Assembly (NCBI GenBank): GCA_011525755.1
Contig: WYBS01000193.1
Coordinates: forward strand, 20,962 to 84,961
Origin: Planctomycetaceae bacterium
Lineage (GTDB): Bacteria > Planctomycetota > PLA2
Direction of reading: 5' to 3'
Length of the DNA: 64,000 bases
This document shows, piece by piece, positions 13,544-33,766 of this stretch (positions within the stretch are counted from its first letter, which is position 1; each line of letters begins with the position of its first letter). A program made the translations under genes and the position numbers. The notes beneath the pieces were generated by a model, which searched no databases, was not told where the DNA came from, and saw nothing but the letters and a program-made list of their open reading frames with translations.

Positions 13544-14113
13544 TCAGTCCGACCAGGCGCCGACGCGCCTCACGATCGCCTCGTCGACGTCGTCCTCGAG
13601 AAGGATGTCGGCGGCAAGGAGCGGCGCCCCCGGACGCAGCACGCGGGCGAGCTCCCCGAGCACGCGGGCCTTGTCCGGGCAGAGGTTAAGGACGCCGTTC
13701 GAAATGGCCATGTCGAAGGACGCGTCCGCGAAGGGCAGCCGCCCGGCGAGCGACCGCACGAAGCGGACCGCGCCGCAAGCGGCCCCGGCTGCGAACCGGA
13801 GCATCTCCCGCGTCATGTCCACGCCGGTGACGCGGGCGCCGCGCCGGGCGGCGAGGAGCGCATCCATGCCGGCGCCCGACCCGAGGTCGAGGACGCGTGC
13901 CCCCTCCGGGATCCTGCCCAGCGAGAGCGGGCACCCGACGCCGGCGAAGCGGTCCACCGCGGCGGGCGGCAGCGCGTCCAGCTCCTCCGGGTCGTAGCCG
14001 AGGGCGAGCGCGCTCGCCCGTCCGAGGGCGAAGCGCCGCTCGGCGCTCGGGTCCCGCGCGACGGCGCCGAACCTCGCGCGGACTTGGCGGAGGATCTCCT
14101 CGTGCTCGCTCAT
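13544..14113 (-). CDS. Class I SAM-dependent methyltransferase (ArsM/UbiE-like)
   Basis: Motif I VLDLGSGAGMD, post-I acidic residue, and motifs II/III (ASFDMAISNGVLNL, LRPGAPLL). The likely start is MSEHEEILR at 14113; the track start is 14152. Confidence 0.8.
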   Translation of the reverse strand: MSEHEEILRQVRARFGAVARDPSAERRFALGRASALALGYDPEELDALPPAAVDRFAGVGCPLSLGRIPEGARVLDLGSGAGMDALLAARRGARVTGVDMTREMLRFAAGAACGAVRFVRSLAGRLPFADASFDMAISNGVLNLCPDKARVLGELARVLRPGAPLLAADILLEDDVDEAIVRRVGAWSD

Positions 14114-14200
14114 GCGCTCCTCCCGGCCGCGGCGGCCACCGACCCACCGCATGCGGCCTCGGGCCTAGGGCCCGGAGCCGGCAGCCTACCCCTTTAGGCA

Positions 14201-14275
14201 TGGAGCCGGCGGTCGGATTCGAACCGACAACCCCCGGTTTACAAAACCGGAGCTCTGCCCTTGAGCTACGCCGGC
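14201..14275 (-). tRNA. tRNA-Thr (anticodon UGU)
   Basis: The reverse complement reads GCCGGCGTAGCTCAAGGGCAGAGCTCCGGTTTTGTAAACCGGGGGTTGTCGGTTCGAATCCGACCGCCGGCTCCA. Anticodon loop TTTGTAA (TGT), GTTCGAATC T-loop and encoded CCA. Confidence 0.88.
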
Positions 14276-14447: not shown

Positions 14448-16586
14448 GTGCTTAACCAGATGCGGACCGGTATCGAGTTCGGGCGGGGACGGATCTACGC
14501 CTCCGAGGCGTTCGTGAGGCTCGAGGGCCCCGGCCACCTCCTGCCCGCCGACGTCGGGCGCCAGGCAGCGTTCCTCGCCCGCAACGCCCAGGGGTGGGGA
14601 GAGCGGATCCGGCGGATCGCCTCGTTCGCGATCTCGGCCTCTTCGATGCCCTTCCTCGCGGCGATCCGGGACGACCTCGGCATCCGGGCGCTCTTCGCCT
14701 CGATGCGGGGCTACAGCCATGACCGCCTCGACTTCCTCGGCCAGGAGTACTTCGAGCGCTGGCTCCTGCCGCGCATCGACGCCGCCCGGGTCGAACGGCT
14801 GAAGGCCCGGATCGCATCCGGCGAGCGCGTGGTACTCGTGAGCGGCTGGCTGGACCACGTCGTCCGGCCCATCGCCCGCCACCTTGGCGTCGACCGGATC
14901 CTCTGCAACCGGCTCGAGTTCCGGGACGGCAGGGCGACGGGCCGGCTCCTCGACCCGATCATCCCCTCGCGGGGCCGCCACCTGCCCGAGGGCTCCGTCG
15001 TCCAGCCGACCGCGGGCGCCCTCCGGAAGAGCCCGACGATCGTCGTGTTCGAGGACGGCCGGATCCTCGCGCCCTTCTCGGTCCGGGAGACGCTCCGCGG
15101 CAGGCAGTTGCTCCTGATCGGCGTCACGGGCTTCATCGGGAAGGTCTGGCTCGCGAACGTGCTGAACGCGCTCCCCGAGATCGGGAAGGTCTTCTGCCTC
15201 GTGCGCAGGCGCGGGAACACGAGCGCGAAGGCGCGGTTCGAGCGGCTCCTCGCCGAGTCCCCCGTGCTCCGCACGATCCCGCAGGACGTCGTGACCCAGA
15301 AGATCGAGGTCGTCGAGGGCGACATGTGCGAACCGGGGCTCGGCCTCGACGCCGCCACGCGCGACCGCCTCCAGGCGTCGCTCGACGTGATCGTCAACTC
15401 GGGCGGGCTCACCGAGTTCATGCCCGACGTGCGCCTCTCGCTCGCGAGCAACGTGGACTCGACGATCCACGCGGTCGAGTTCCTGCGGGGCTGCGACCAC
15501 GCGTCGCTCCTCCACCTCTCGACCTGCTACGTCGCGGGCCGGCGTTCCGGCCGCATCCCCGAGCGCGCGGAGAAGGACCTCACCCCCGCGGGCACCAGGG
15601 GCTTCGACGTCGAGGACGAGCTGCGCGAGCTGCGCCTGCTCATCGCCGCGAAGGAGCGGGAGTCGGAGAAGCCGGACCTCTTCCCGAACATCCGCCCCCA
15701 CTCGGGCAAGCAGATGAGCGACGTCCAGATGCGGAAGGCGCGCGAGCGCTGGCTCCGCGCGGAGCTCACGCGCCTCGGCATGGAGCGCGCGAACCGCTTC
15801 GGCTGGACGAACACCTACACCTACACGAAGGGCCTCGCCGAGGCGCTGCTCTGCGCGCGCGGCGCCGACCTTCCGATCGCGATCGTGCGCCCGTCGATCG
15901 TCGAGAGCTCCGACAAGGATCCGTTCCGCGGCTGGAACGAGGGCGTGAACACGTCCACCCCGCTCACCTACCTGCTCGGGATGCCCTTCCGGCTGCTCCC
16001 GACGCGGCACGGGCTCCGCCTCGACGTCGTCCCCGTCGACCTCGTCACGCGCGGGATGAACCTCATCGCGGCGGCGCTCGTCCGCCGGACGCACCACCGC
16101 TGCTACCAGATCGCGACGTCGGTCCGGAACCCGCTCGGGATCGCGCAGTCGATCGAGCTCACCTGCCTCGCGCACCGCCGCTACTACCAGGGCCGCCCCG
16201 GGTTCGACGCATGGCTCCGCACCGAGTTCGAGGCGCTGCCGGTCTCGCGTTTCCGCTACCGCGCCTTCTCCGCGCCGGGCCAGCTGGCGGTCGTCCGGGC
16301 GCTGCGCCGCGTCCTCCCGCTCCTCGTGCTGAAGCGCGCGGAGCGAAACCTCGAGAAGGTCGGGAAGATCGTCGAGCTGTACGAGCCCTTCATCCACGAC
16401 AACGACTACGCGTTCGAGGCCGACAACATCGCGCTGCTCGATGCGGCGCTCGTGCCGGAGGAGCGGGAGGCGTTCGGCTGCGACGCCTCCGGGATCGACT
16501 GGCCGACGTACTGGATCGAGACGCACATCCCCGCGCTCCGGAAGTGGTCGTACCCGCTGATCGAGGGGCGCCCGATCGAGGGTTGA
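14448..16586 (+). CDS. Fusion protein: N-terminal HAD-like hydrolase-fold domain (degenerate, no clear DxD) plus alcohol-forming fatty acyl-CoA/ACP reductase (FAR, NAD_binding_4 / male-sterility family)
   Basis: 712 aa. The N-terminal ~200 aa resemble HAD-IB hydrolases (VVLVSGWLDHVVRPIARHLGVDRILCNRLE). The FAR domain has the Rossmann motif LLLIGVTGFIGKVWL, a YTYTK active-site YxxxK and a long C-terminal FAR_C-like region. It is the first gene of a tightly coupled operon. Confidence 0.8.
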   Translation: MLNQMRTGIEFGRGRIYASEAFVRLEGPGHLLPADVGRQAAFLARNAQGWGERIRRIASFAISASSMPFLAAIRDDLGIRALFASMRGYSHDRLDFLGQEYFERWLLPRIDAARVERLKARIASGERVVLVSGWLDHVVRPIARHLGVDRILCNRLEFRDGRATGRLLDPIIPSRGRHLPEGSVVQPTAGALRKSPTIVVFEDGRILAPFSVRETLRGRQLLLIGVTGFIGKVWLANVLNALPEIGKVFCLVRRRGNTSAKARFERLLAESPVLRTIPQDVVTQKIEVVEGDMCEPGLGLDAATRDRLQASLDVIVNSGGLTEFMPDVRLSLASNVDSTIHAVEFLRGCDHASLLHLSTCYVAGRRSGRIPERAEKDLTPAGTRGFDVEDELRELRLLIAAKERESEKPDLFPNIRPHSGKQMSDVQMRKARERWLRAELTRLGMERANRFGWTNTYTYTKGLAEALLCARGADLPIAIVRPSIVESSDKDPFRGWNEGVNTSTPLTYLLGMPFRLLPTRHGLRLDVVPVDLVTRGMNLIAAALVRRTHHRCYQIATSVRNPLGIAQSIELTCLAHRRYYQGRPGFDAWLRTEFEALPVSRFRYRAFSAPGQLAVVRALRRVLPLLVLKRAERNLEKVGKIVELYEPFIHDNDYAFEADNIALLDAALVPEEREAFGCDASGIDWPTYWIETHIPALRKWSYPLIEGRPIEG

Positions 16587-16669
16587 GATGCAGGCGGGCG
16601 ATCGGGGGAGGGCGGGGCCTTGGGTCATCCGATGATTCGGGGCCGGGCTGCGGGAGGGGGGGCCGTCCT

Positions 16670-17806
16670 GTGGCCATCCTCCTGACCGGCGGCACGGGGT
16701 ACATCGGCAGCTACGTGGTCGCCCGGCTCCTCGAGGCGACCCCGGAGCCGCTCCTGCTCCTCGCGCGCAAGGCGTCGAAGGAGGGGCTCTGGCGCGCGCT
16801 CCAGCTCCACCTCGACGAGGCGGCGTTCCGCAAGGCGCTCCGCGACGGACGGATCAAGGGGGTCGAGGGGGACCTCACGGCCCCGGGATTCGGCCTCGAC
16901 GCGGGCGCCCTCGAGCGGCTCACGAAGGAGACCGACTCGATCATCCACATCGCCGCCTCGCTCAACCGGAAGTCGGAGCGCGCCTGCCTCAACACGAACC
17001 TCCGCGGCACGCTCCACCTGATCGAGCTCGCGCGCCGCGCCCAGGACGACCACGGCCTCCGCCGCATCAGCCACGTCTCGACCGTCGCCGTCGCCGGGCA
17101 GCGCCAGGACGAGGTGGTGAAGGAGGACACGGCGATCGACTGGGAGCGGAACGACTACGACCCCTACGCCCGGACGAAGAAGTTCTGCGAGTACATGATC
17201 ACGCGGCTCCTCCCCGAGGTGCCGCGGACGATCTTCCGGCCGAGCGTCGTCCTCGGCGACAGCCGGCGCCCGGAGACGACGCAGTTCGACATGGCGAAGG
17301 CGTTCGTCTTCCTCGCGCGGCTCCCGTTCCTCCCGCTCCGCCGGGACGACCGGATCGACATCGTGCCCGTGGACTACGTCGCGGACGCGATCGCCACGAT
17401 CCACCTGCGCGAGCCCGCGCCGCACTCGATCTACCACCTCGCCGCGGGCGAGGACGCGCCGACCTACGCGGAGGTCACCTCCGCGGTCGCCGACGCGCGA
17501 AGGAAGTCGCCGCCCTGGTTCTGGCCGTGGGCAGAGAGGCCCTTCGCCGGCACCGCGCGCTTCCTCGCGGGGTTCCGCGGCACGGGCGTCGGGAGCGCGG
17601 CCGCGCGCCTCCAGGTGTTCATGCCCTACCTCACCTACAACACGGTCTTCGACAACTCGCGCGTGGTGAGCGCCCTCGGGCGGAAACCCGCGCGCTTCCC
17701 GGCGTACTGCGCGCGGCTCCTCGAGTGGTGCCTCGCGCACAAGTTCGAGTACCCCTACGTGGACCTCCCCCGGGACCCCCTCTCTTCCGCGGAGACGGCT
17801 CGATGA
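16670..17806 (+). CDS. Stand-alone thioester/fatty-acyl reductase (extended SDR, NAD_binding_4-like)
   Basis: GTG start preceded by the strong Shine-Dalgarno GGGAGGGGGGG. The N-terminus is MAILLTGGTGYIGSYVVARLL (TGxxGxxG), with a catalytic YARTK (YxxxK). The stop overlaps the next gene's ATG (ATGATG/TGA). The track ORF 15326-17806 is an out-of-frame read-through artefact upstream of 16670. Confidence 0.8.
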   Translation: MAILLTGGTGYIGSYVVARLLEATPEPLLLLARKASKEGLWRALQLHLDEAAFRKALRDGRIKGVEGDLTAPGFGLDAGALERLTKETDSIIHIAASLNRKSERACLNTNLRGTLHLIELARRAQDDHGLRRISHVSTVAVAGQRQDEVVKEDTAIDWERNDYDPYARTKKFCEYMITRLLPEVPRTIFRPSVVLGDSRRPETTQFDMAKAFVFLARLPFLPLRRDDRIDIVPVDYVADAIATIHLREPAPHSIYHLAAGEDAPTYAEVTSAVADARRKSPPWFWPWAERPFAGTARFLAGFRGTGVGSAAARLQVFMPYLTYNTVFDNSRVVSALGRKPARFPAYCARLLEWCLAHKFEYPYVDLPRDPLSSAETAR

Positions 17807-19206
17807 TGGACCTCGTCCTCGAGGCCTGGATGACCTCCCTCATCGAGGCGAGCAAGCTGCGGTACGTCCTCGGCGGCGGAGATCGCTGGAAGCCGGGCCG
17901 GCCGCTGAAGCTGCTCTTCGTCGGCTACAACGGCGCGCGGAACACCGGCTCCGACGTGCGCGTGGACGGCATGGTGAACCAGATCCGCCACGTCCTCGGC
18001 GCGGCCAACGTCGAGATCTCCGTGATCTCCCAGGACTTCGCGCTCACGAAGGGGTACTTCGGCGGCGCGAAGCTCGTGAAGCTCCAGGACATCTTCCCCC
18101 CCTTCCTCTTCCGCGAGGTGCCGAAGCACGACGGCGTGATCGCATGCGAGGGGTCGATGTTCAAGAGCAAGTTCGCGGACGCGCTCACGGTGATGATGGT
18201 CGGCGCGCTCGGCATCGCATCCGCCTACAACAAGGTCTCCGTCGCCTACGGCGCCGAGGCCGGCCACATGAACCTCGTCCCGCGCTGGATGGTGAAGCGC
18301 TACTGCAAGGACACGCTCGTCGTGACGCGCAGCGAGGAGTCGCGGGCGCTGCTCGGGAGCCTCGGCGTGCCGTCGGAGCTCGGCACCGACACGGCGTGGA
18401 CCTTCGAGCCCCATCCGCCCGAGTACGGGGAGGAGCAGCTCCGGAAGGCGGGCTGGAAGGGGGAGCCGCTCCTCGTCCTCTGCCCCATCAACCCCTTCTG
18501 GTGGCCGGTCAAGGCGTCGGTCGGGAAGGCGCTCCTCCGGCTCTTCGGCGCGTACAAGGAGAGCCACTACCGGTCGATCTACTTCCACAAGTCGGGCCCC
18601 TCGGTCGACGCCGCGTACGAGCGCTACCTCGACGCCTACGCGAACGCGACGAAAGCGTTCCGCGAGCGCCGGAAGGTCTTCCCCGTGCTGGTCGCGATGG
18701 AGCAGCTCGACGCGCGCGCGTGCCGGCGGATCGCGGAGAAGCTCGGCGGCGCGCCGGTCTTCAGCTCGAGCGACTACGACATGTACGAGCTCGTCTCCAT
18801 CGCGCGCAAGGCCGACCTCATGATCTCCTCGCGCTACCACGGCATCGTGACCACGATGCCCGCGCTCGTCGCCTCGGCCGGCGTCACGATGGACGAGCGC
18901 ATCCGCAACCTGATGCGGCAGCGCGGCCAGCCGCAGCTCTCGCTCGAGTGCGACGATCCCGAGCTGGAGAGCAGGATCCTCGCGACCCTCGAGGACCTCC
19001 ACGAGGGCGCGGAACGGGTCCGGGAGGGCATCGGCCGGACCGTCGTCGCCCACCTGAAGGAAATGGCGAAGATGGGCGTCTACTTCGAGGACAACGTCAG
19101 GAAGCTCTACCCCGAGTTCCCCGGAAGGACGGGCGTCCACGGCTGGCGCGAGTACCTCCCGCCGCTCTCGCCGCGCCTCAACGGCCTCGTCGAGCGCTAC
19201 GGTTGA
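17803..19206 (+). CDS. Polysaccharide pyruvyl transferase family protein (CsaB/WcaK-like fold)
   Basis: 467 aa starting MMDLVLEAW. Family-typical N-terminal motif KLLFVGYNGARNTGSDV and C-terminal motif ADLMISSRYHGIVT (compare xLxISxRLHGxI). Its 4-nt start/stop overlaps with both neighbours place it inside the lipid operon. Confidence 0.65.
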   Translation: MMDLVLEAWMTSLIEASKLRYVLGGGDRWKPGRPLKLLFVGYNGARNTGSDVRVDGMVNQIRHVLGAANVEISVISQDFALTKGYFGGAKLVKLQDIFPPFLFREVPKHDGVIACEGSMFKSKFADALTVMMVGALGIASAYNKVSVAYGAEAGHMNLVPRWMVKRYCKDTLVVTRSEESRALLGSLGVPSELGTDTAWTFEPHPPEYGEEQLRKAGWKGEPLLVLCPINPFWWPVKASVGKALLRLFGAYKESHYRSIYFHKSGPSVDAAYERYLDAYANATKAFRERRKVFPVLVAMEQLDARACRRIAEKLGGAPVFSSSDYDMYELVSIARKADLMISSRYHGIVTTMPALVASAGVTMDERIRNLMRQRGQPQLSLECDDPELESRILATLEDLHEGAERVREGIGRTVVAHLKEMAKMGVYFEDNVRKLYPEFPGRTGVHGWREYLPPLSPRLNGLVERYG

Positions 19207-20693
19207 ACTTCCTCGAGCGGATCCACTCGAGCCTCCTCGAGGGCGGCGACCGCGCCGCGGTCCGCGAGGGCCCGCTCTCCGTCCGCGCGCGCGACCTCCT
19301 CGCGATGATCGCGTCCGCCCGCGCGTTCCTGCGCCACGCGGGAGTGAAGCCGAAGGACCGCGTGGCGCTCTGGGGCGACAACAGCGCGCGCTGGGTGGCG
19401 CTCGATCTCGCGATCATGGGCGAGGGCGCGATCACCGTGCCGTTCTACGGCCGCCAGCCCGGGAAGGACGTCCTCCGGATGGTCGCCGACTGCACGCCCG
19501 CGCTCCTCCTCTGCGACACGCGCGAGCGGCTCGACGCGGTCGGCTCCGGCTGCCTCTTCGAGGAGGCGAACGAGGCCGGCAAGGTCGAGGAGCCCCTCCC
19601 CCGCGCCCCCTCCGATCCGGTGCGGATCGTGTACACGTCCGGCACCTCGGGCGAGCCCAAGGGAGCGGTCTTCCACCTCGGGAACGTCGATTTCATGCTC
19701 CCGCGCGTGCTCGGCCGCGTCGAGGAGGTGATGGGCGGCCCGGCCCGGGACGAGCGCGTCTTCCACTACCTCCCCTGCTGCTTCGCGGGGTCGTGGATCC
19801 TCATGCTCAGTTGCCTCGCGCGCGGGACGGAGCTCGTCTTCTGCACCGATCTCGAGAAGCTGAAGGAGGAGATGCGCGCGGCGGATCCGCACTGGATGCT
19901 CAACGTTCCGCTGCTCCTCGAGCGCATGCGCGCGGGGATCGAGCGGCAACTGGGGGGGGCCCGGGGGCCGAAGGCGTGGCTCTGGAGGCGGGCGTTCGGC
20001 CGGAGACTCCTCGCGCCGCTCGTCCGGCGGAGGATCGCGCCCTCGCTCAGGGCGCTGATCTGCGGGTCGGCGCCCCTCTCCGAGGAGACGCAGCGGTTCT
20101 TTATGATGCTCGGGTTGCCCGTGCTCCAGGTCTACGGCCTCACCGAGACGACGGCCATCTGCACGATGGACCGTCCGGGCTCGGTCGTGCCGGGCCGCGT
20201 CGGCAGCGCGGTCGACGGCTGCGAGATGAAGCTGGACGGGAAGGGCGAGATCCTCGTCCGCGGGCCGAACGTGTTCCCCGGGTACTGGGGGAGGGAGCCG
20301 CAGGGCGAGTGGCTCGCGACCGGGGACCTCGGCGACGTGGACGAGGCCGGGCGCTGGCGCATCGTCGGCCGGGCGAAGTACGTGATCGTCCTCGCGTCGG
20401 GCCACAACGTGCCGCCGGAGCCGATCGAGGAGAGGTTCTCGGACCTCGGCCAGGTGATGCTCGTGGGCCACGGGCGGAAGTTCCTCGGGCTTCTCGTGGC
20501 GGGGGACCGGGGGAACGCGGACCTCGCGATCGCCGCCGCGAACAGGGATCTCCCCCACTACAAGCAGGTGCGGGCCTACCGCCGCTGCCCGCCGTTCACG
20601 GTCGAGGAGGGGCTCCTGACCGCGAACGGCAAGCTCCGCCGCGACGCGATCCTCTCGAAGCACGCGACGCTCATCGAGGAGATGTACCGGTGA
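19203..20693 (+). CDS. AMP-dependent synthetase/ligase (fatty acyl-CoA or acyl-ACP ligase)
   Basis: AMP-binding motif YTSGTSGEPKG, then GYGLTET and the C-terminal lysine region. The putative TTG start at 19203 overlaps the upstream TGA (TTGA); a downstream in-frame ATG (MIASARAF) is an alternative start. Confidence 0.85.
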   Translation: MNFLERIHSSLLEGGDRAAVREGPLSVRARDLLAMIASARAFLRHAGVKPKDRVALWGDNSARWVALDLAIMGEGAITVPFYGRQPGKDVLRMVADCTPALLLCDTRERLDAVGSGCLFEEANEAGKVEEPLPRAPSDPVRIVYTSGTSGEPKGAVFHLGNVDFMLPRVLGRVEEVMGGPARDERVFHYLPCCFAGSWILMLSCLARGTELVFCTDLEKLKEEMRAADPHWMLNVPLLLERMRAGIERQLGGARGPKAWLWRRAFGRRLLAPLVRRRIAPSLRALICGSAPLSEETQRFFMMLGLPVLQVYGLTETTAICTMDRPGSVVPGRVGSAVDGCEMKLDGKGEILVRGPNVFPGYWGREPQGEWLATGDLGDVDEAGRWRIVGRAKYVIVLASGHNVPPEPIEERFSDLGQVMLVGHGRKFLGLLVAGDRGNADLAIAAANRDLPHYKQVRAYRRCPPFTVEEGLLTANGKLRRDAILSKHATLIEEMYR

Positions 20694-21454
20694 TCCGCAC
20701 GAAGCTCGAAGGGGGCGTGCTCGAGATCGAGCTCTGCCGGGAGCCCTTGAACGAGATCGGCACCGAGATGCTCGGGGCGCTCGAGAAGGTGGATCTCGGG
20801 GGGGCGCGCGCGGTCGTGCTCCATAGCTCGCTCCGGCAGGGGTTCTGCGCGGGCGCGGATCTGCGCGAGCTCTATCACGCCGGCAAGGGCATGAAGCCCG
20901 CCGAGCGGAGAAAGGGCGTCCGGGAGTTCCTGGGGCGCATCCACGCGTTCCTGAACCGGCTCGACGAGGCGCCGGTGCCGACGGTCGCGGCGGTCCACGG
21001 CGCGGTCTTCGGCGGCGGGCTCGAGCTCGCGCTCGCGTGCGACCTGATCGTCGCCGACCGGTCGACGCGGTTCGCCTTCCCGGAGCTGCGGCTCGGGCTC
21101 GTGCCGGGGTTCGGGGGCATCCCGCGGCTGAAGCGGGACGTCCCGAACTCGCTCGTGCGCGACCTCCTCTTCACGGGCCGCTCGATCAACGCGGAGAAGG
21201 CGCTCCAGGCGGGCCTCGTGAGCCAGGTGGTCGCGGAGGGGCAGGCGCTCCGGGCGGCCCGCGCGACCGCGGCGCAGATGGCGAAGTTCGATCCGGCGAC
21301 GGCGGCGGCGGCGAAGAGGTTCGTGAAGCCGTTCCCGCGGGCGGAGCTGGAGAAGGAGATGGAGCTCTTCCTCGAGCTCTTCGAGCGCCCGGTGGTGCAG
21401 GACGCGCTCCGGAAGTTCGTGGAGGACAAGGGCCCGATGCCCTACCTCCCGTGA
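20690..21454 (+). CDS. Enoyl-CoA hydratase/isomerase (crotonase) family protein
   Basis: 254 aa from a GTG overlapping the upstream stop (GTGA). Crotonase fold signatures: oxyanion-hole region HGAVFGGGLELALACDLIVA, and GFCAGADL earlier. Confidence 0.85.
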   Translation: MIRTKLEGGVLEIELCREPLNEIGTEMLGALEKVDLGGARAVVLHSSLRQGFCAGADLRELYHAGKGMKPAERRKGVREFLGRIHAFLNRLDEAPVPTVAAVHGAVFGGGLELALACDLIVADRSTRFAFPELRLGLVPGFGGIPRLKRDVPNSLVRDLLFTGRSINAEKALQAGLVSQVVAEGQALRAARATAAQMAKFDPATAAAAKRFVKPFPRAELEKEMELFLELFERPVVQDALRKFVEDKGPMPYLP

Positions 21455-21459
21455 TTCGT

Positions 21460-21487
21460 TGTACGGAGCCTGACACGATTCAATGAA
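21460..21487. repeat. 28-bp direct repeat, copy 1 (TGTACGGAGCCTGACACGATTCAATGAA)
   Basis: It lies in the 28-nt gap between the crotonase stop (21454) and the small-peptide ATG (21483). Copy 2 sits 269 bp downstream with 26/28 identity. Confidence 0.8.
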
Positions 21488-21680
21488 CGGGAGGCGCGGC
21501 ATGGGCAAGATCACCCGCCACGAGTTCCTGGGCAGCCGCCTGCTCGTCGTGATCCTCTGCATGACGGTCATCGGGATCCCGATCGCGGTCATCCACCTGA
21601 TCGAGGGGCTCGTCACGATCGAGGAGGAGATCCCGGACCCGACGGCATTCATGGAGGCGTACCGGCGGAAGAACCCCTGA
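21483..21680 (+). CDS. Small hypothetical membrane peptide (one TM helix)
   Basis: 65 aa (or 59 aa from MGKITRHEF at 21501). Hydrophobic core LLVVILCMTVIGIPIAVIHLI. It sits between the crotonase and the ACP inside the operon, and is preceded by copy 1 of a 28-bp repeat and a GGGAGG Shine-Dalgarno. Confidence 0.45.
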   Translation: MNGRRGMGKITRHEFLGSRLLVVILCMTVIGIPIAVIHLIEGLVTIEEEIPDPTAFMEAYRRKNP

Positions 21681-21723
21681 CCGACAGCCCTCGGCGGGCG
21701 AACGCGACCCGTGCGGTAACCTG

Positions 21724-22041
21724 ATGGATGTACGGAGCCTGACACGAATCGATGAATACCAGGTTCTCATTGATAGGTGCCTGGCACACCTCAACGACAT
21801 GCGCACGCAAGAACAGACCGAGAGCGAGCTCCTCGACCTCGCGGCCGCCCACTTCAAGGCGGACCGCAAGACGCTCCGCCCCGAGGACGACATCTTCGAG
21901 AAGCTCGGGATCGACAGCCTCCAGGCCCTCGAGCTCCTGACGAGGCTCGAGCGCCACTTCGGCGTCGAGCTGCCCGACTACGAGCTCCAGGGCGTGAGCG
22001 ACTTCAGGACCCTCGCCGAGCGGATCTTCGTCCGGCTGTGA
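21724..22041 (+). CDS. Acyl carrier protein (dedicated ACP of the operon)
   Basis: [23 protein letters not shown] contains the DSL phosphopantetheine-attachment serine motif. The true start may be the internal MRTQEQTE (21799), giving an 80-aa ACP, because copy 2 of the 28-bp repeat overlaps codons 2-11 of the longer form. The stop overlaps the next GTG (GTGA). Confidence 0.85.
21729..21756. repeat. 28-bp direct repeat, copy 2 (TGTACGGAGCCTGACACGAATCGATGAA)
   Basis: It overlaps the first codons of the long form of the ACP ORF, upstream of the alternative ACP start at 21799. There are two mismatches to copy 1. Confidence 0.8.
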
Positions 22042-23684
22042 TCGACCTCGACCGCCACCCCTCGCTCGGGAGCATGCTCCGGGAGGCCTTGGACCGGTTC
22101 GGGGACGACCTCTGCCTCATCGAGGCCGACCGCGACCGCGAGCGCTGCCGCCTCACCTACGCAGAGGTGCGCGCGGCGCGCGGCAGGCTCGCGGGCGCGC
22201 TCGCCGCGGGCGGCGCCCGCCGCGTCGCGATCCTCATGACGAACCAGTCGAAGTGGCACTTGGCCGCCGCCGCCGCGCTGCACGTCGGCGCGACGGTCGT
22301 GCCGCTCGACCCGAAGCTCTCGCCCGAGGAGCACGCGACGCTCCTGAAGCACGCGGGCGCGGACACGCTCTTCGTCGAGCATCACCTGTACCGGAAGCTC
22401 GCCTACGACGGCCGCGCGATCGTCACCGAGGCGCCGCCGGGCTTCGATCTCCGGGGCGCCGCGCGGTTCGAGGAGTGCGAGGGCGAGGAGCCGCCGCTCG
22501 CGGAGCGCGCCCGCACCGACGTCGCCTGCATCGTCTACTCCTCGGGAACCGGCGGCCGGCCGAAGGGGTGCATGCTCACCCACGGCAACTACCTGTCGCA
22601 GCTGAAGGCGCTGCTCGAGAAGTTCCGCTTCGAGCGCGGCGACCGCTACCTCTCGATCCTCCCCACGAACCACGCGATCGACTTCATGTGCGGGTTCCTC
22701 GGCCCCTACGCGTGCGGCGCGACGGTCGTCCACCTGCGGACGCTCCGCCCCGAGTTCGTCCGCGACGCCTTCCCGCGCTACCGGATCGCCTATGCGGCGC
22801 TCGTGCCGATGCTCCTCCGGAACCTCCAGGCGGGCCTCGAGGAGAAGTTCAAGGCGCTCTCCGGCCCCCGCCGCCCCCTCCTTTCCGCGCTCCGGTGGTT
22901 GAACCGCGTCCTCACGAGGCGTCGCCCGCATCTCGGCCTCTCGAAGAGGCTCCTGCGCCCGGTGCACAGGGGGTTCGGGGGCGCGCTCAAGGCATTCTTC
23001 GCCGGCGGCGCCTTCACCGACCCGAAGATGCTCCGCTTCTTCTACGACCTGGGGATCCAGGTCGCGAACGGCTACGGCTTGACCGAGGCGGGCACGGTCG
23101 TCACCCTCAACGACTTCGAGGACTACCGCCCGGACACCGTCGGCCGTCCGCTCGAGGGCACCGAGGTGCGGATCGCCGACGCGGGCCCGGACGGGATCGG
23201 CGAGGTGTGCGTCAGGGGACCGACGGTGATGGCGGGGTATCTCGACGACCCCGAGCTGACCGCGCAGACGATCGAGGGCGGCTGGCTCCGGACGGGCGAC
23301 CTCGGCCGGCTCGAGCCTTCCGGGCACCTGTGCCTCTTCGGACGCAAGAAGAACATGATCGTGACCGCGGGCGGGAAGAACGTGTACCCGGAGGACATCG
23401 AGAACGTCTTCGACGGAGTGCCGGTGAAGGAGTTCTGCGTCTTCGCGGGCCACGTGATCCGCGACGACCGGAAGGAGCAGCTCCTCGTCGTCGTGCGGCC
23501 GGACGGCCGGGAGTGGCTCGCCGACCTGCAGGCGCGCAACCGGAAGCTCCCGGACTACAAGCGCGTGCATGCCTACATCCCGTGGGAGAAGGACTTCCCG
23601 CGGACCGCGTCGCTGAAGATCAAGCGCGACGCGCTCGCGGACGACCTCCGGGCGGCGGCGGGCGCGCCGGTGGTCGACCTGTGA
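22038..23684 (+). CDS. AMP-dependent synthetase/ligase, second copy (candidate acyl-ACP synthetase loading the adjacent ACP)
   Basis: 548 aa from a GTG. AMP-binding motif [19 protein letters not shown], and a C-terminal [10 protein letters not shown]. It lies immediately downstream of the ACP with a 4-nt overlap. Confidence 0.85.
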
Positions 23685-24574
23685 CGCTTCCTGTAGCGCT
23701 CGCTGTCGTCAACCCGCACGCCGGCGGCGGACGCTGCGGGAGAAAGGCCGACGAGGCTCTCGCGAGGCTCCGGAAGGCGGGCGTCGCGTTCGAGGTGGCG
23801 CGGACGGAGCGGCCGGGCCACGCGGTCGAGATCGTGCGGGAGGCGTACGGGCGCGGCGTCCGCCGTTTCCTCTCGGTCGGGGGCGACGGCACCGGGTTCG
23901 AAGTGGTCAACGGCCTCCGATGGGAGGGGTCCGAGGGGGACCGCGCGACCCTCGGCTTCCTGCCGCTCGGGACCGGGAACTCCTTCCTGCGCGACTTCGA
24001 GGGCGACCCGTTCGAGCGCATCGCCTCGGGCCGGACGCGGCCGTGCGACGTGGTCCGGGTCCGGCACGCGGGGGGCGATGTCTACTCGATCAACCTCGTC
24101 GCCCTCGGGTTCCCGGCGGACGTCGGCGAGGCGACGAACCGGCGATTCAAGTGGGCGGGGCCCATGGGCTACGTCCTCGGCGTCCTCTCGTGCCTCGCGC
24201 GCCGCCCGCGCCACGTCCTCCCGCTCCGCGCGGACGGCGCGGAGGCGTGGGAGCGGGATCCCTGCCTCATGCTCGTCTTCGCGAACAGCCGCTTCACGGG
24301 CGGGAAGATGATGATCGCGCCGGACGCGCGCCCGGACGACGGGCTCATGGAGTTCGTGCGGCTCGGCCCCCTCGGACGGCTGTCGATCGTGCGCCGGCTC
24401 CCGCGCCTCTTCGACGGAACCTACGTGCGGTTGCCCGGCGCCTCGCGCCGGGGCGTGCACCGCGTCGATTTCGATCTCCCGGGGCCGGTGGGTGTCATGA
24501 TCGACGGAGAGGTGCTTCATCTCCACTGCCGCTCCCTCGAGGTGCTGCCCGGGAGGGTCGACGTCCTCGCATGA
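23681..24574 (+). CDS. Diacylglycerol/lipid kinase catalytic-domain protein (YegS/BmrU, sphingosine-kinase-like family)
   Basis: GTG start overlapping the upstream TGA. DAGK_cat signature [16 protein letters not shown], with a later GTGNSF. 297 aa. Confidence 0.82.
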
Positions 24575-25317
24575 AGGGCGGCTGGCTCGTGCTCAGGAGC
24601 ACGGTGCTCTGGACGGTGAGCATCCTCCACTTCTGCGTCGTCGTGCCGCTCGTGCTCCTGCTCGCCGCGATCCTCGGCTGGCAAAGGGTCGAGCCGCTCC
24701 TGCTCCTCGGCTGCAAGAACATCGTCCGCCTCGCGGGCGCGCGGCTCGTCGCGCACGTCCCCGAGGGCTTCGACCCCCGCGTCACCGGCTTTTTCGTCAG
24801 CAACCACGTGAACATCTTCGACCCGTTCGTCCTCTACTCGGCGGTCCCGAGGAAGTTCCGCGGCCTCGAGCTCGAGTCGCACTTCAGGATCCCGGTCTAC
24901 GGCTGGCTCATGAAGCGGTTCGGCAACGTGCCGGTGCCGGACGCGCGCACGCCGTCCGGGCTCAAGAAGACCTACCGGCTCGCGGGCGAGGCGATCGCGG
25001 CGGGAACCTGCCTGATGGTCTTCCCGGAGGGGAGCCGCACCCTCGACGGGCGCGTGGGCGAGTTCGAGGACGGAGTGTTCCGGATGGCGATCCAGCTGCA
25101 GGCGCCGATCACGCCGGTCTCCATCGTGGGCTCGTTCCGCTGGCAGAACAAGCTGTCGAGGCTGCTCCGGCCCGCGACGGTCCACGTCCACGTGCACGAG
25201 ACGGTGGACGTGACGGGGCTCACGCGGAAGGACCTCGACACGCTGCGCGAGCGCGTCCGCGCGACCGTGGCCGCCCCCGTCCACGCCGCCCTCGACGGGT
25301 CACGGCAGGAGCGCTGA
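24571..25317 (+). CDS. 1-acyl-sn-glycerol-3-phosphate (lysophospholipid) acyltransferase, PlsC family
   Basis: ATG overlaps the upstream TGA (ATGA). N-terminal TM segment; acyltransferase motifs HX4D (SNHVNIFD), FPEGSRT and a later VPIxxV-like block. It is the last gene of the operon. Confidence 0.85.
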   Translation: MKGGWLVLRSTVLWTVSILHFCVVVPLVLLLAAILGWQRVEPLLLLGCKNIVRLAGARLVAHVPEGFDPRVTGFFVSNHVNIFDPFVLYSAVPRKFRGLELESHFRIPVYGWLMKRFGNVPVPDARTPSGLKKTYRLAGEAIAAGTCLMVFPEGSRTLDGRVGEFEDGVFRMAIQLQAPITPVSIVGSFRWQNKLSRLLRPATVHVHVHETVDVTGLTRKDLDTLRERVRATVAAPVHAALDGSRQER

Positions 25318-25388: not shown

Positions 25389-26411
25389 GTGCGGCACCTC
25401 CTGTGCTACGGTGCCGACATGGGTGGACCGCGGTGGTGTCTCCTTGTGCTCGGCTTGCTCCTCCGGTCGGCGGCAGCCCAGGAAGTCGAGGACGCGAGGT
25501 CGGTCGCGGCAGAAGCTTCCGCAAGGCACGCGACCGCCGAGACGATCGCGCGCTTCATCCGCCTCCTCGTGGCGGAGCCCCGGGCTCCCGAGGAGGACGC
25601 ACGCCCGTGGCTGCTTGACGCGCTGATCCGGGCGGATGCCGACGTGCCGGCTCGCATCCTGGAGCCGCTGTTCGACACCTACCCGGATCAGGTGGTCGTC
25701 CTGCTGGCGAAGGATCCGGCCGCGAACCGCGAGGCCATGCTGCGGCTGACGGACGGCGAGGCGGCGCCGCTCCACCGGATGGCGATCGCGGCCGTGCTGG
25801 CCGGCGCCCGTCAACCCGGCGTCGCCTCGCGCCTGCTGGACGGACTCGTCGTGACCTGCATGGTGTCCGTGCTGCCGAGCCCGAACATGGCGATCGGTGT
25901 CGGTGGCGGAGCCGGCGGCCCGCCGCCGGCTCCTGTCGTTCGCGCCCACCGCGTCCTGAGACCGGGTTGGCCTCCTTTCGTCCGGTACACGCTCACGGAC
26001 AAGCCGCAGAGAGGCGACGTGCTCGTCGGAGGTGGGACGTACCGGATCTACTACCGGCGGGAAGAGATCCGCGGTGACGGCGTGGATCTTCTCGTTTTTC
26101 CGCCCTGCATCGACGACGCCAGCTTGCGCCTTGGCTGTGTCGCTGACCTTCTCCCAGGTGGCCCCAGGGAGGTGCGGCTGCAACCAGTCACGCAGTGGAC
26201 CCTCTACTGGAGCGACGCGGAGACGTACCTGAAGGAGGTCGCGGAACGCCGCGCGAGGCTCGCTGTCTTCCACGCAGCGCTCGTCGGTGCGCTGGTGCGG
26301 CGCGGGTTGCTGACGGAGCAGGAGCGGAAGGGGTTGAAGCTCCGCGTTGCGTGGAAGATCACGGACCACCGCCGGGAAAACGAGCCCCTCCCGGCCATTC
26401 CGGACGAGTGA
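25389..26411 (+). CDS. Hypothetical secreted protein
   Basis: 340 aa. The likely start is MGGPRWCLLVLGLLLRSAAAQEV (signal peptide). No recognisable catalytic motif; it is convergent with aroC. Confidence 0.4.
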   Translation: MRHLLCYGADMGGPRWCLLVLGLLLRSAAAQEVEDARSVAAEASARHATAETIARFIRLLVAEPRAPEEDARPWLLDALIRADADVPARILEPLFDTYPDQVVVLLAKDPAANREAMLRLTDGEAAPLHRMAIAAVLAGARQPGVASRLLDGLVVTCMVSVLPSPNMAIGVGGGAGGPPPAPVVRAHRVLRPGWPPFVRYTLTDKPQRGDVLVGGGTYRIYYRREEIRGDGVDLLVFPPCIDDASLRLGCVADLLPGGPREVRLQPVTQWTLYWSDAETYLKEVAERRARLAVFHAALVGALVRRGLLTEQERKGLKLRVAWKITDHRRENEPLPAIPDE

Positions 26412-27577: not shown

Positions 27578-30253
27578 CTAGAGATCGTTGATCTCGTGGG
27601 TCTCGCCGTCGTAGGAGAGGCGGCGGGGGCGGCTCTCGACCAGCGTCTCGATGTGGACGGGGCGCGTCCAGAGGCGGTAGAGGTGGCGGAGCGTCTCCTT
27701 CGCCTGCGCGAGGTCGAGATCCTGCCCGTCGTGGCGGTGGGAAAGGACGACCTCGCCGCGGTTCCGGAAGTTGCCGTCCGTCACCTCGATGATCGGCTGG
27801 CCGCCGTTCGCGAGGCTGCGCAGGAGGCGGTCCTTCACGAGCCTCCAGTCGCGGCTCGCGATCTCCTGGCGGCCCGTCTTCGGGTTGAACTCGTAGGTGT
27901 AGAGCTTCTGGCGCTCGCAGAACTCCCGCGTCAGGAACTCGTCCACGAACGTGACGTCGTTGTAGATGCGCCTCACCTCGAAGATCTTCTCGCGGCCCTG
28001 CCGGAGGCCCGTGTCCCACTGGCGCTTGACGTCCCGGTCGTCGCACTCCTCGTACTCCTTGCCGAACTGCCCCTTGTCCCAGCGCTCCTCGATGTCGCGG
28101 TAGAGCTCGATGCCGAGCTTGTAGGGGTTGACCTGCCCCGGCTGCGTCGCCATCGCGCCCGCGTGGCGTTCGGCGAAATCCACGACCTCCGAGGAATCGA
28201 GGAGCTTCTCGGTCATCATCCGCGAATGCCAGTAGCTGTTGTGGTGGACGAGCCCCTCGGCCGCGTACCGGTGGGTCCCCTCGACCGTCATGTCGTAGAC
28301 GTCCGCGCGTCCGCGATCGAGAGAGACCACCTCGTCCTCGGCCGGCTGGTCGAGGAGCCAGCAGTGGCCATCGACGTAGCGGCGCAGCGCTTCGCGCTTG
28401 CGGGCGAGGCCGAAGTTCACTTCCTCGCCGAAGGTGCGGACCGCGGCGCCCGCGACGTGGATCCGCCAGCAACCATCCGCACGCTGGCGGCGTCTGCTCG
28501 AGATCACCCCGAAGTTCGCGAGGAGCACGTGGACGAGGCGCGCGAGCTCGTCGCTCTTGGTGATCAGGATCACGCCGGCCGGGCCCGCGTAACCGTCCCC
28601 GTCGAAGTACGAGCGGAGGAACGCCGCGACGACGCTCCTGGGGGAACGCAGGATTGCCTCCGGCACCGTCTTGCGCCCGACTGCGAACCCCGCGGGGAGG
28701 CCGAGATGGCGGAGGAAGTCGATCAGGTGGCGTGAATAGAGATGCACCCGGATCCGGTTCCCCTGGCGCTGCGTGCGCGGCTCGAGCCCGAAGAGGTCCT
28801 CTGCGAGCGATGCGAAGTCCGCGGCCTGCTCTTCGTCGCCCGTAGTCAGGGAGACCACGCGCTTGACCTCGCTGACGTTGCCGTCGGAGAGCAGATAGCC
28901 GAGGAAGGATGCCAGCCGCTCGTCCATCACGCGCGGGGTACGAAGCGGTGAGCGATTGCCGAAGAGCGGCCCCCTCGCGGCGAGATCGGGCGCGAGGAGC
29001 GGTTCGATTCGTGCCCCGCTCCTGCTCACGAACAGACCCTGCTCGTGACGCAGGACGGTGCTCACGTTGACGCCGGCCTTCTCAGCTGCGGCTTCAAGCG
29101 TGAACCGCTCGGGCGGCCGCCAGTCGAGCCGGACTCGGTCCCGCGCCCATAGGTCCGTGCCGATTGCGAGGCGGACGCGGTCGCCGGTGACGAGCTCGTC
29201 GAGCCGCCGCCAGGCGCCGTCGGCAAGTTGGACCCGGTGGGTTGTCGAGCCCTCGACTTCGTAGCCCCGGCGGGTCGTGAGCCGCACCGTCTCGCGGTCC
29301 TCGAACCGGGCCCAGTCGGCGATCCGGCGACGGTCGGCGCCGTCGTTCACCTCGCCGGTGATCCGTTCCTCGACGATCTCGCGAATGGTGAGGAGACCGC
29401 GGTCGGTCGGCACCCGCGCGTCGCCTCGCAGGCAAGCCCACCCTTCGTTCGCGACCTTCGTCAGGCGCTGCGGCGCGAAGTAGTAGGCCTCCTCGCGGAT
29501 CATCGCGAGCACGTCGCGCTGCCAGTCGCGGAGCGGCGCGTGCTCGAGCAGGAACCAGAGCACGTCGCGCTCCGGCCGCTCGGGGAAGTGCGGCGCGCGC
29601 TTCCTCGCCTCCTCGATCGCCCTCTTCTGCCCCTCGATGAACTCCGGGGGGTTGATGAAGGACTCCATGTAGGGCTTCGCCTGGAACCGGACGATCCCCT
29701 TCCCCTCGGACCCCTTCCCCTCCTCCTCGCGGGGACGCCGCCTCGGCGGCGCGTAGGGCGCGTAGATGTCGATCAGGTTCTCGAGGCAGAGGCAGGAGTC
29801 GAGGAACGCCTCCACCTCGTCCGGCCCCTCGCGCGACACGTGCCGCTGGATCCGCGAGGCGTGGCTCGCGAGCTCGTCGATCATGTGGCGGTTGGTCGGC
29901 GCGAACCAGAGGTTGTTCTTGAAGAAGTCGCAGTGCGCGTACACGTGCGCCATCACGAGCTTCTGGTCGACGAACGCGTTCCCCTTGAGCAGGTAGGCGT
30001 AGCAGGGGTCGTTGTTGATGACGAGCTCGTAGATCTTGCTGAACCCCCAGCCGTAGCTCTTCGAGATCTGGTCGTAGGCCATCCCGAACCGCCAGTGCGG
30101 GTAGCGGATCGGGAACCCGTCGTAGGCGGCGACGGTGTTCATCTGCTGCCAGTCGACGAGCTCGAAGACCGTCTCGAAGAAGTCGAGGCGATACGAGGCG
30201 GCGACCTCGCGGACCCGCCTCTGGAGTTCGGCGAGCTCGGCCGGCAGGCTCAT
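27578..30253 (-). CDS. spoVR: SpoVR/YcgB-family protein interrupted in-frame by an intein (891-aa precursor; 492-aa mature SpoVR)
   Basis: Start [62 protein letters not shown] (SpoVR N-terminus). The ATG overlaps the yeaH stop (ATGA). The extein junction NEGWA|C...HN|SYWH and a C-terminal extein through ...HEINDL. The 1977-aa track ORF is this frame read upstream through yeaH/prkA out of frame. Confidence 0.88.
28238..29434 (-). mobile_element. Intein (399 aa) with LAGLIDADG-type homing-endonuclease domain, inserted in spoVR
   Basis: It begins with Cys right after the host NEGWA ([17 protein letters not shown]; block A) and ends ...[10 protein letters not shown], followed by Ser+1 (SYWH). 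Block B-like STTH. Two LAGLIDADG motifs ([10 protein letters not shown] and [11 protein letters not shown]) with both Asp retained. Removing residues 274-672 restores the conserved SpoVR motif NEGWASYWH. Confidence 0.85.
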
Positions 30254-31383: not shown

Positions 31384-31392
31384 CCCGTTCCG

Positions 31393-33453
<2,061 letters not shown>

Positions 33454-33766
33454 CTAACGGTCGAGGCCGGCGGGGCCAGTGACGGCCCCCCCGGCCTCTT
33501 CCATCTCGCACTTCTCGGGGAAGCTTCTTCGCCCCCCGCCCCTGAATACGCGGCCCGGGAGCAAATGGCAGCTCCCGCTGGCCCAGGACGAAGACACACC
33601 ACCGCCTGCTTGCATGCCCGGGGGTTGAGCCCCTCTGAGAAAGATCGGCCAGACGCGGGACCGCGACGAGAGGGGGCCCGCTTCCGCCCAGGGGCCTCGG
33701 CGGGGCAGGCCGCCCTCCACGGCGGCCGAGGCCCTGAACGCTCTCTCGGGGACACAGCCGGCGAGA

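Follow-up and report, generated by a model that had tools for sequence, protein, structure and literature searches.

We analysed a 64,000-nucleotide stretch of the genome of a Planctomycetaceae bacterium (contig WYBS01000193.1; hereafter the window) and identified, at positions 14448-25317, an operon whose products most likely convert fatty acids to fatty alcohols and these to a phospholipid precursor. The locus comprises nine genes for enzymes or carriers (g1-g5 and g7-g10) and a small non-conserved open reading frame (ORF), g6, all on the plus strand (Table 1). With about 70% G+C, the window DNA yields many artefactual ORFs in raw lists; genes were called from frame plots of the G+C content at third codon positions (GC3), inspection of start codons and independent calls on identical public contigs. 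By GC3, the locus is a single unbroken run of coding frames. Domains were identified by Pfam and NCBIfam profile searches of g1-g10, and solved relatives by matching to the PDB. No NCBIfam equivalog cut-off was reached by any of the ten proteins. Catalytic motifs are intact across the operon except in the HAD-like domain of g1.

Six junctions are secure 4-nt start/stop overlaps (g2/g3, g3/g4, g4/g5, g7/g8, g8/g9 and g9/g10), and their starts were reproduced by independent gene calls on identical contigs. A seventh overlap, between g1 and g2, is doubtful because translation would have to begin at a TTG, and the first 30 codons from there lack conservation; the GTG at 16670 chosen by gene callers leaves an 84-nt gap, which is probably the true junction. 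The g6 ORF has coding-type GC3 but is confined to identical contigs. Elsewhere its position is empty or holds a 111-aa ORF, a gene for 3-ketoacyl-ACP synthase III (KAS III) or mobile/defence genes, and it probably lies outside the pathway. Thus, of the ten tightly packed genes described in the original prediction, the plus-strand run and six of the overlaps are secure, whereas the g1/g2 overlap is not and the conserved genes number nine.

Table 1. Features of the operon and its surroundings in the window, with median identity of homologs to the window protein.
Feature	Position	Strand	Content	Median identity
g1	14448 (alternative ATG 14460)-16586	+	HAD, NAD_binding_4 and Sterile (Pfam)	48%
g2	16583 (more likely GTG 16670)-17806	+	NAD_binding_4/Epimerase (Pfam)	56%
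g3	17803-19206	+	PS_pyruv_trans (Pfam); 467 aa	63%
g4	19203-20693	+	AMP-binding and AMP-binding_C_3 (Pfam); AMP-forming ligase 1	46%
g5	20690-21454	+	ECH_1 (Pfam); predicted crotonase-fold enoyl-thioester hydratase	58%
g6	21501-21680	+	59 aa, one predicted transmembrane helix, no Pfam or NCBIfam match	
g7	21724 or 21799-22041	+	PP-binding (Pfam); gene-caller start ATG 21799 gives 80 aa	72%
g8	22038-23684	+	AMP-binding (Pfam); AMP-forming ligase 2	56%
g9	23681-24574	+	DAGK_cat and YegS_C (Pfam); DgkB/YegS-family soluble lipid kinase	52%
g10	24571-25317	+	Acyltransferase (Pfam); PlsC/AGPAT family, N-terminal transmembrane segment	46%
SAM methyltransferase	13544-14152	-		
tRNA-Thr	14201-14275	-	Upstream neighbour of the operon	
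g11	25389-26411	+	340-aa ORF, signal-peptide-like N-terminus, no Pfam match, GC3 weaker than neighbours; near-identical contigs only	
SpoVR	27578-30250	-	SpoVR of a PrkA-DUF444(YeaH)-SpoVR operon	
DUF444	30250-31392		Real gene beneath an artefactual 1977-aa ORF	
PrkA	31393-33453		Real gene beneath the same artefactual ORF	

The operon encodes two reductases of different kinds. Profile searches of g1 matched PF12710 (7.9e-15), PF07993 (1.6e-50) and PF03015 (2.9e-08). The last of these, the Sterile domain, scored 34.2 bits, slightly under its gathering threshold of 35.4, and is backed by an alignment of residues 211-700 to a fatty acyl-CoA reductase (PDB 7eoz, E=4.6e-36); all other Pfam matches of the operon were above gathering. 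The sequences GVTGFIGK and YTYTK correspond to the GxxGxxG and YxxxK motifs of fatty acyl reductases (FAR). We predict that the C-terminal part of g1 is an alcohol-forming FAR of the eukaryotic type, with NAD_binding_4 and Sterile (FAR_C) domains. By comparison, g2 matched PF07993 (3.8e-42), PF01370 (6.8e-21) and the thioester reductase profile TIGR01746 (1.3e-31), as well as its best solved relative, MxaA, the myxalamid terminal thioester reductase (PDB 4u7w, E=5.6e-22). Its motifs GGTGYIG and YARTK are intact, and the alignable part of the orthologs begins at about residue 31. The g2 product is a stand-alone thioester reductase (TR) of the terminal-reductase type found in nonribosomal peptide synthetases (NRPS) and polyketide synthases (PKS), an extended short-chain dehydrogenase/reductase.

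The HAD-IB-like domain of g1 (about residues 20-175) is degenerate. In place of the DxDxT of motif I stands FVRLEGPGHLL in the window, (F/Y)WRVEGSLL in the aligned orthologs (n=21) and FFRLEGTLV in Myxococcota, and motif IV is missing from the HAD-FAR fused form. The domain cannot be counted as a phosphatase because the catalytic aspartates, including the DxDxT nucleophile, are missing in every ortholog examined; it is a conserved, predicted pseudo-phosphatase that is either non-catalytic or altered in role. HAD and FAR are encoded as separate genes at two of the loci compared below (L005 and L095). All of the domains named in the original prediction were therefore recovered by Pfam, with the reservation on Sterile given above. 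Of the two fatty-acyl reductases it proposed, however, only g1 is a FAR, and the HAD-like domain is present without a phosphatase role that could be assumed.

The g3 product passed the Pfam gathering score for PF04230. Its alignment to the CsaB equivalog TIGR03609 spanned the full model but reached only 74.8 bits against the cut-off of 213.1. There was no sequence-level match in the PDB, even at E<=10. A profile alignment to E. coli WcaK was modest (E=1e-4) and paired CEGSMFK with GGSFF, GTDTAW with GVDTAW and SSRYHG with GTRLH, the last containing an R-x-H motif. The equivalent R337 and H339 of Pvg1p have been modelled as contacts to phosphoenolpyruvate (PEP) (PMC6801904). An alignment of 25 diverse g3-family sequences shows H346 to be invariant and R344 almost invariant. 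We predict that g3 is a pyruvyl-transferase-like protein of the GT-B fold on a distant branch of PF04230. The family is large, with 876 representatives at 50% identity at E<=1e-3 (216 at E<=1e-30) and more than 7800 when clustered at 90%. Characterised PF04230 members are described as ketal-pyruvyl transferases (PMC6801904, PMC8615578), and CsaB, WcaK and Pvg1p share the GT-B fold with g3, which aligns to WcaK at the conserved GGS, DTAW and R-x-H motifs. A polysaccharide pyruvyl transferase would be expected to use a saccharide acceptor and to be encoded in a polysaccharide or cell-wall glycan locus; g3 stands among lipid enzymes, exceeds CsaB by about 150 aa, and is fused to a FAR in one lineage. 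Its identity between phyla, 61-67%, is the highest among the enzymes of the operon.

The remaining genes encode two ligases, a hydratase, a carrier, a kinase and an acyltransferase. The first ligase, g4, matched PF00501 (8e-56) and PF23562 (8.9e-07) and carries the motif YTSGTSGEPKG. In the PDB it is closest to feruloyl-, malonyl- and oxalyl-CoA synthetases and to carboxylic acid reductase (CAR), the CAR alignment covering residues 132-495. The second, g8, matched PF00501 at 1.8e-70, with NRPS adenylation domains, MenE and FadD13 as its best PDB matches. In g5, a strong ECH_1 match (PF00378, 1.5e-45, 156 bits) is accompanied by both catalytic glutamates, in GGGLELAL and FPELRLG, equivalent to E144 and E164 of rat enoyl-CoA hydratase (ECH). 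With a PF00550 match (1.4e-12), a DSL serine motif and 66-78% identity in orthologs, g7 is predicted to be a dedicated acyl carrier protein (ACP), and g8, which is translationally coupled to it, probably loads it. The kinase g9 matched PF00781 (1.7e-24, 86.2 bits) and PF19279 (2.2e-24, 86.5 bits) and has a GGDG motif; it is under the cut-off of the TIGR00147 subfamily (93.4 versus 118.65). The acyltransferase g10 matched PF01553 (9.9e-20, 71.1 bits versus 23) and retains NHVNIFD (HX4D) and FPEGSRT.

A scan with g3 that used one genome per species returned 244 relatives, and the best 80 of the 244 loci were compared, with gene content determined by tblastn using the window proteins and identities given relative to these. 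Genes g1-g5 and g7-g10 occur in the same order and on the same strand in all 80 loci, none being out of order. The set is complete in 31 loci; in another 31 the sequence ends before the remaining genes, and in the other 18 loci block B (g7-g10) or g10 is missing despite room. The invariant core is g1-g4. Nearly all carriers belong to Acidobacteriota (Blastocatellia, Terriglobales/Acidobacteriaceae, Acidiferrales and Chloracidobacterium) and Planctomycetota, the closest locus being that of Planctomycetota MAG.302 (94% identity). Between phyla, identities of 45-70% are combined with a fixed gene order. The TR gene and the g3-type gene (PyrT) overlap by 4 nt in 52 of 78 other loci, and translational coupling also links g8 to g9 and g9 to g10 in most loci. 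Of 35 complete loci, 15 have a convergent gene for a cytidine diphosphate (CDP)-alcohol phosphatidyltransferase about 57 nt downstream; other flanking genes are not conserved. The operon is chromosomal and vertically conserved, and it is conserved across at least three phyla.

Insertions within the operon were considered as accessory pathway genes and mostly rejected: AbiU2, AAA_15/DUF4435, PIN, peptidase S15 and ABC transporter genes each occur without recurrence, and only KAS III is found repeatedly, in Blastocatellia-type loci, where it lies between ECH and ACP. Insertions of the defence or toxin type leave the gene order undisturbed in three Acidobacteria metagenome-assembled genomes (MAGs): AbiU2 (L066, 18443-19102), AAA_15 with DUF4435 (L069, 17352-19444) and PIN (L058, 15799-16296). 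In one Terriglobia MAG (L055, 13228-14937), the g1-g4 core is directly followed by a gene for a 569-aa radical SAM protein of the B12-binding type, which resembles TIGR04013 far below its cut-off and is unique among the loci compared. A protein with the AMP-binding, PP-binding and acyltransferase domains of ElbD, lacking the FAR, is encoded convergently to the operon in two Acidobacteria (L005, 19886-21419; L080, 9340-11331); as it was found at these two loci only, we do not regard it as a regular neighbour.

More distant g3 relatives reveal which of the genes belong together. A Myxococcota MAG (L095) carries HAD, FAR, TR, PyrT, ECH, ACP, AMP ligase, YegS kinase, PlsC and a TetR gene, with 34-57% identity to the window proteins, and in a Polyangiales MAG (L094) TR and PyrT overlap by 4 nt. 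In a Pseudobacteriovorax MAG (L093), FAR (NAD_binding_4 and Sterile) and PyrT are fused in one 1014-aa protein, whose PyrT part is 45% identical to g3, and ECH, ACP and a g8-like ligase follow downstream. Both L093 and L095 lack g4 and have g8 as the sole ligase, whereas g5, which always follows g3 or g4, is retained in both. A Clostridiales MAG (L091) and a metagenome contig (L120) have PyrT followed by a 918-aa fusion of an N-terminal TR with a ligase of the g4 type. In L091 the g2-like part of this fusion aligns with E=2e-37 and the g4-like part with 27% identity (E=2e-40). A scan of metagenomes, made with a narrow family alignment, also recovered an Actinobacteria-type lineage (n=26 loci) with tandem PyrT paralogs beside a YegS kinase gene (17 of the 26) and two iron-containing alcohol dehydrogenase genes. 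The arrangement in L090 and L098-L115 is two such dehydrogenase genes, a divergent YegS gene, PyrT1, PyrT2, a gene resembling FAD amine oxidases and phytoene desaturases, a SAM methyltransferase gene and GH57. Thus, in those lineages that have PyrT among lipid genes, it is paired with a reductase of the NAD_binding_4 type; g2 pairs with g4, and g8 and ACP pair with FAR and ECH.

These genes recall the elb system for ether lipids of Myxococcus xanthus. ElbD combines FAR, acyl-CoA synthetase (ACS), ACP and AGPAT in one protein (PMC9131029), and in elbA-E (MXAN_1531-1527) elbB encodes a HAD protein, elbA and elbE encode proteins of the NAD-epimerase type, and ElbC is of unknown function (PMC9131029, PMC13012113). 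The four activities of ElbD occur together in the window operon on g1, g8 (and g4), g7 and g10. The original prediction had likened these four, here split into separate ORFs, to ElbD, in agreement with that description, and had counted the other functions as supplements; however, HAD and a reductase of the NAD-epimerase type are also part of elb, and six functions correspond, so that each function annotated in elb has its equivalent here. In the window the HAD domain is fused to the FAR instead. Beyond the annotated functions of elb, the operon has a second ligase, a crotonase, the pyruvyl-transferase-like g3 and a YegS lipid kinase. The unfused operon is also present in Myxococcota (L095), the phylum of elb. 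We suggest classing the locus as a variant of the elb-type system with unfused genes, not as a member in the strict ElbD sense.

Each of the two systems has one protein that is difficult to annotate. In Myxococcota, precomputed Pfam matches are faint or lacking for g3 homologs but strong for ECH and YegS, so that g3 alone of these three would be labelled as of unknown function; for this reason ElbC is probably a homolog of g3. A homolog search seeded with the Polyangiales g3 relative returned Polyangia MAGs and no Myxococcus. The claim that the operon was not a described cluster can be kept in part. Elb-like clusters have been described in sponge symbionts, some with a split elbD, flanked by genes for diacylglycerol kinases, acyltransferases, CDP-alcohol transferases and KAS III (bioRxiv 10.64898/2026.06.23.733905), and these are probably the same kind of operon. 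None of the papers searched connects elb-type loci with a pyruvyl transferase or with a crotonase, or puts the pathway to the test.

Other known systems share single elements with the operon. The eukaryotic peroxisomal/ER ether-lipid route (FAR1, GNPAT and AGPS, with salvage by alkylglycerol kinase and AGPAT) has the FAR architecture of g1, but it relies on the flavoenzyme AGPS and the dihydroxyacetone phosphate (DHAP) acyltransferase GNPAT, both of which the operon lacks, and it has no counterpart of g3, the GT-B pyruvyl-transferase-like candidate for ether formation. The combination of g8, g7 and g2 (or g4 and g2) recalls the adenylation, carrier and thioester reductase units of CAR and of NRPS/PKS reductases acting in trans, on separate polypeptides unlike those of CAR or MxaA-type proteins. 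The Clostridiales fusion is likewise a CAR-like didomain, but its domain order is reversed and it has no carrier domain in between. A chemical precedent for g3 may be found in MurA and MurB, where PEP and an alcohol give an enolpyruvyl ether that is then processed reductively (PMC6801904). The fold of MurA is unrelated to that of g3 and the two are not homologous; for g3, the acceptor would be a lipid alcohol.

Given the analyses presented above, we slightly favour the view that the operon is an unfused elb-type pathway that produces the precursor of an alkyl (ether-type) acyl glycerophospholipid from a fatty alcohol, the ether chemistry being what we infer. An AMP-forming ligase would activate a fatty acid, which the FAR domain of g1 would reduce to a fatty alcohol; the domains are identified, and the substrate is assumed. 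The FAR-g3 fusion and the retained R-x-H donor motif suggest that g3 then acts on this alcohol with PEP or a similar phospho-activated donor. A second acid-to-alcohol module, g4 with g2, whose pairing is supported by the fusion, might serve a carboxylate associated with the reaction of g3, and the crotonase g5 might hydrate an enoyl-thioester intermediate. Kinase followed by AGPAT is the textbook conversion of an alkylglycerol to 1-alkyl-2-acyl-glycerol-3-phosphate. Consistent with their enzyme families and with the neighbouring CDP-alcohol phosphatidyltransferase, from which this last step is deduced, g9 would phosphorylate a lipid alcohol with two free hydroxyls, and g10 would acylate it with acyl-ACP supplied by g8 and g7, giving an analogue of phosphatidic acid for head-group synthesis.

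One specific form of this pathway is doubtful but can be written out in full. The g3 proteins may represent a novel class of enolpyruvyl transferases that act on lipids and form the ether bond, so that the glycerol backbone would be built de novo from PEP. In such a scheme, g3 would join the FAR-made fatty alcohol to PEP in an alkyl enolpyruvyl ether, whose carboxylate would be converted to a thioester by g4, or by g8 and g7. Hydration of the 2-alkoxyacryloyl thioester by g5 would give a 2-O-alkyl-glyceroyl thioester, g2 would reduce this to an O-alkylglycerol, and g9 and g10 would complete an alkyl-acyl-glycerophosphate. The scheme would be the most economical, as every catalytic gene is used and only the degenerate HAD-like domain is left without a role. 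Its weakness is that attack at C2 of PEP would give a 2-O-alkylglycerol, whereas the monoethers of Acidobacteria (PMC10087280) and of M. xanthus (PMC9131029) are described as 1-O-alkyl.

Several observations weigh against an ether-lipid operon centred on g3. Generic GT-B glycosyltransferases and epimerases outscore Pvg1p among the structural matches of g3, and PEP can therefore not be regarded as its established donor. In cultured Schlesneria paludicola (L092; JH636435.1, 10001-14652), the g3 homolog WP_010586167.1 (51% identity) stands alone, and in one Deltaproteobacteria MAG a g3 homolog is not beside lipid genes. Block B (g7-g10) or g10 is not adjacent in the 18 loci with room for it; g10 is missing directly after g9 in eight Terriglobales-type loci. 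None of the carriers of the operon, almost all of which are MAGs, has a known lipid product, and the likeness to elb was drawn from domain content and literature statements rather than from Elb sequences. The operon is common in Terriglobales-type MAGs, and cultured Terriglobales relatives are reportedly for the most part without ether lipids. S. usitatus, although an ether producer, is said to have no ElbD (PMC10087280). By contrast, Blastocatellia (subdivision 4), for which abundant alkyl glycerol ethers and elb homologs have been reported, account for many of the best 80 loci. Aside from these points, PEP carboxylase, likewise a PEP-using enzyme, is encoded directly after the g3 homolog of S. 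paludicola.

Alternatively, the product could be a pyruvate ketal of a long-chain diol, a glycerol-free or otherwise unusual anionic lipid instead of an alkyl glycerol ether. The usual pyruvate ketal bridges the 4,6-diol of a sugar, which is a 1,3-diol arrangement. ECH and FAR would convert an enoyl or 3-hydroxyacyl thioester to a long-chain 1,3-diol, g3 would add the ketal from PEP, and g4 with g2 would modify the ketal carboxylate. This chemistry is that of the characterised PF04230 members, it would make use of both hydratase glutamates of g5, the minimal Pseudobacteriovorax set (FAR-PyrT, ECH, ACP and AMP ligase) fits it, and the problem of regiochemistry at PEP does not arise. We nevertheless consider it unlikely, since ketal formation would leave no hydroxyl for PlsC, so that g9 and g10 are hard to place, and the neighbouring CDP-alcohol transferase points to a product resembling phosphatidic acid. 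Moreover, we know of no ketal-diol lipid from Acidobacteria, Planctomycetota or Myxococcota. It is also possible, though again improbable, that the operon carries out elb-type ether synthesis in which g3 does not form the ether. Another activity would join the aldehyde or alcohol to glycerol or a DHAP derivative, for example by hemiacetal formation, dehydration and reduction by g2, and g3 would modify the product or its head group. The domain content is the same as that of elb, which makes 1-O-alkyl lipids, and two reductases are available for the task; such a route would also account for the 1-O-alkyl monoethers, which PEP C2 chemistry does not directly give (PMC10087280). A peripheral decorator should, however, be the most dispensable component. 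Instead g3 is the most conserved enzyme, physically fused to FAR in one lineage and situated between g2 and g4 in translational coupling, within the invariant g1-g4 core. The same conservation, and the fusion or coupling to reductases in other phyla, speak against g3 as a head-group modifier at the margin of the pathway; the original prediction had counted it among the supplements.

A ligase, a carrier protein and a terminal reductase are also hallmarks of NRPS-like clusters. The operon might thus make a diffusible metabolite derived from a fatty aldehyde or alcohol, a wax or a storage lipid, with g9 and g10 present by coincidence. AntiSMASH detects elb-like clusters, which have been compared with MIBiG BGC0000871 (bioRxiv 10.64898/2026.06.23.733905), and block B is detached in some genomes. 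We regard this explanation as very unlikely. The operon occupies the same core-chromosome site, between EF-Tu/ribosomal protein genes and aroC, in related Planctomycetota, its gene order is fixed at 45-70% identity across phyla, and g8/g9 and g9/g10 are coupled in most loci; there is no wax synthase (WS/DGAT), export gene or tailoring enzyme. Two further possibilities can be rejected. A locus for fatty-acid degradation is excluded because acyl-CoA dehydrogenase, 3-hydroxyacyl-CoA dehydrogenase and thiolase are absent and ACP, FAR and PlsC are present. A polysaccharide locus does not fit either: neither beside g3 in the window nor at any of the related lipid-gene loci examined were genes for glycosyltransferases, flippases or polymerases found. 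Together with the conservation of the operon as a unit and the CDP-alcohol phosphatidyltransferase downstream, these absences bear out the earlier suggestion of a self-contained lipid pathway, for which an ether lipid is the product we infer.

Upstream of the operon and its neighbouring tRNA-Thr gene lie rpoB, ribosomal protein genes, EF-Tu, tRNAs, and genes for a cyclophilin and a methyltransferase. Downstream, the non-conserved g11 is followed by aroC (minus strand) and the SpoVR-DUF444-PrkA genes. The SAM methyltransferase gene, g6 and g11 were rejected as pathway members, as none is conserved outside near-identical contigs. Rfam, promoter and terminator scans returned tRNAs only and no regulatory element. 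The SpoVR protein has about 890 aa, compared with 492 aa in related contigs, and harbours an intein that carries a homing endonuclease of the LAGLIDADG type (Pfam Intein_splicing and LAGLIDADG_3). The 1977-aa ORF at 27578-33511 (minus strand) is a high-GC artefact, its N-terminal approximately 1085 codons running out of frame over PrkA and DUF444.

Formation of alkyl ethers without AGPS in aerobic bacteria is an unsolved question, which g3 may explain. For M. xanthus, the route by which a fatty acid becomes an alkyl ether is described as unknown, and no function is assigned to ElbC (PMC9131029); this biosynthetic gap also concerns the ether lipids and brGDGTs (branched tetraether lipids) of Acidobacteria, which serve as palaeoclimate proxies (PMC10087280, PMC11868695). 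The operon singles out the g3 family, with its 876 clusters and its fusion to FAR, as a candidate for the missing chemistry, and because the elb activities reside here on single genes, each step can be tested individually. If ether formation from PEP were confirmed, it would constitute a route to ether lipids that is independent of AGPS, of oxygen and of ester reduction, and ElbC would gain a function. Should the ether hypothesis not hold, it would still be new for this family to include an enzyme of lipid metabolism in at least five phyla, and we ascribe to the g3 enzymes a previously unrecognised role in lipids.

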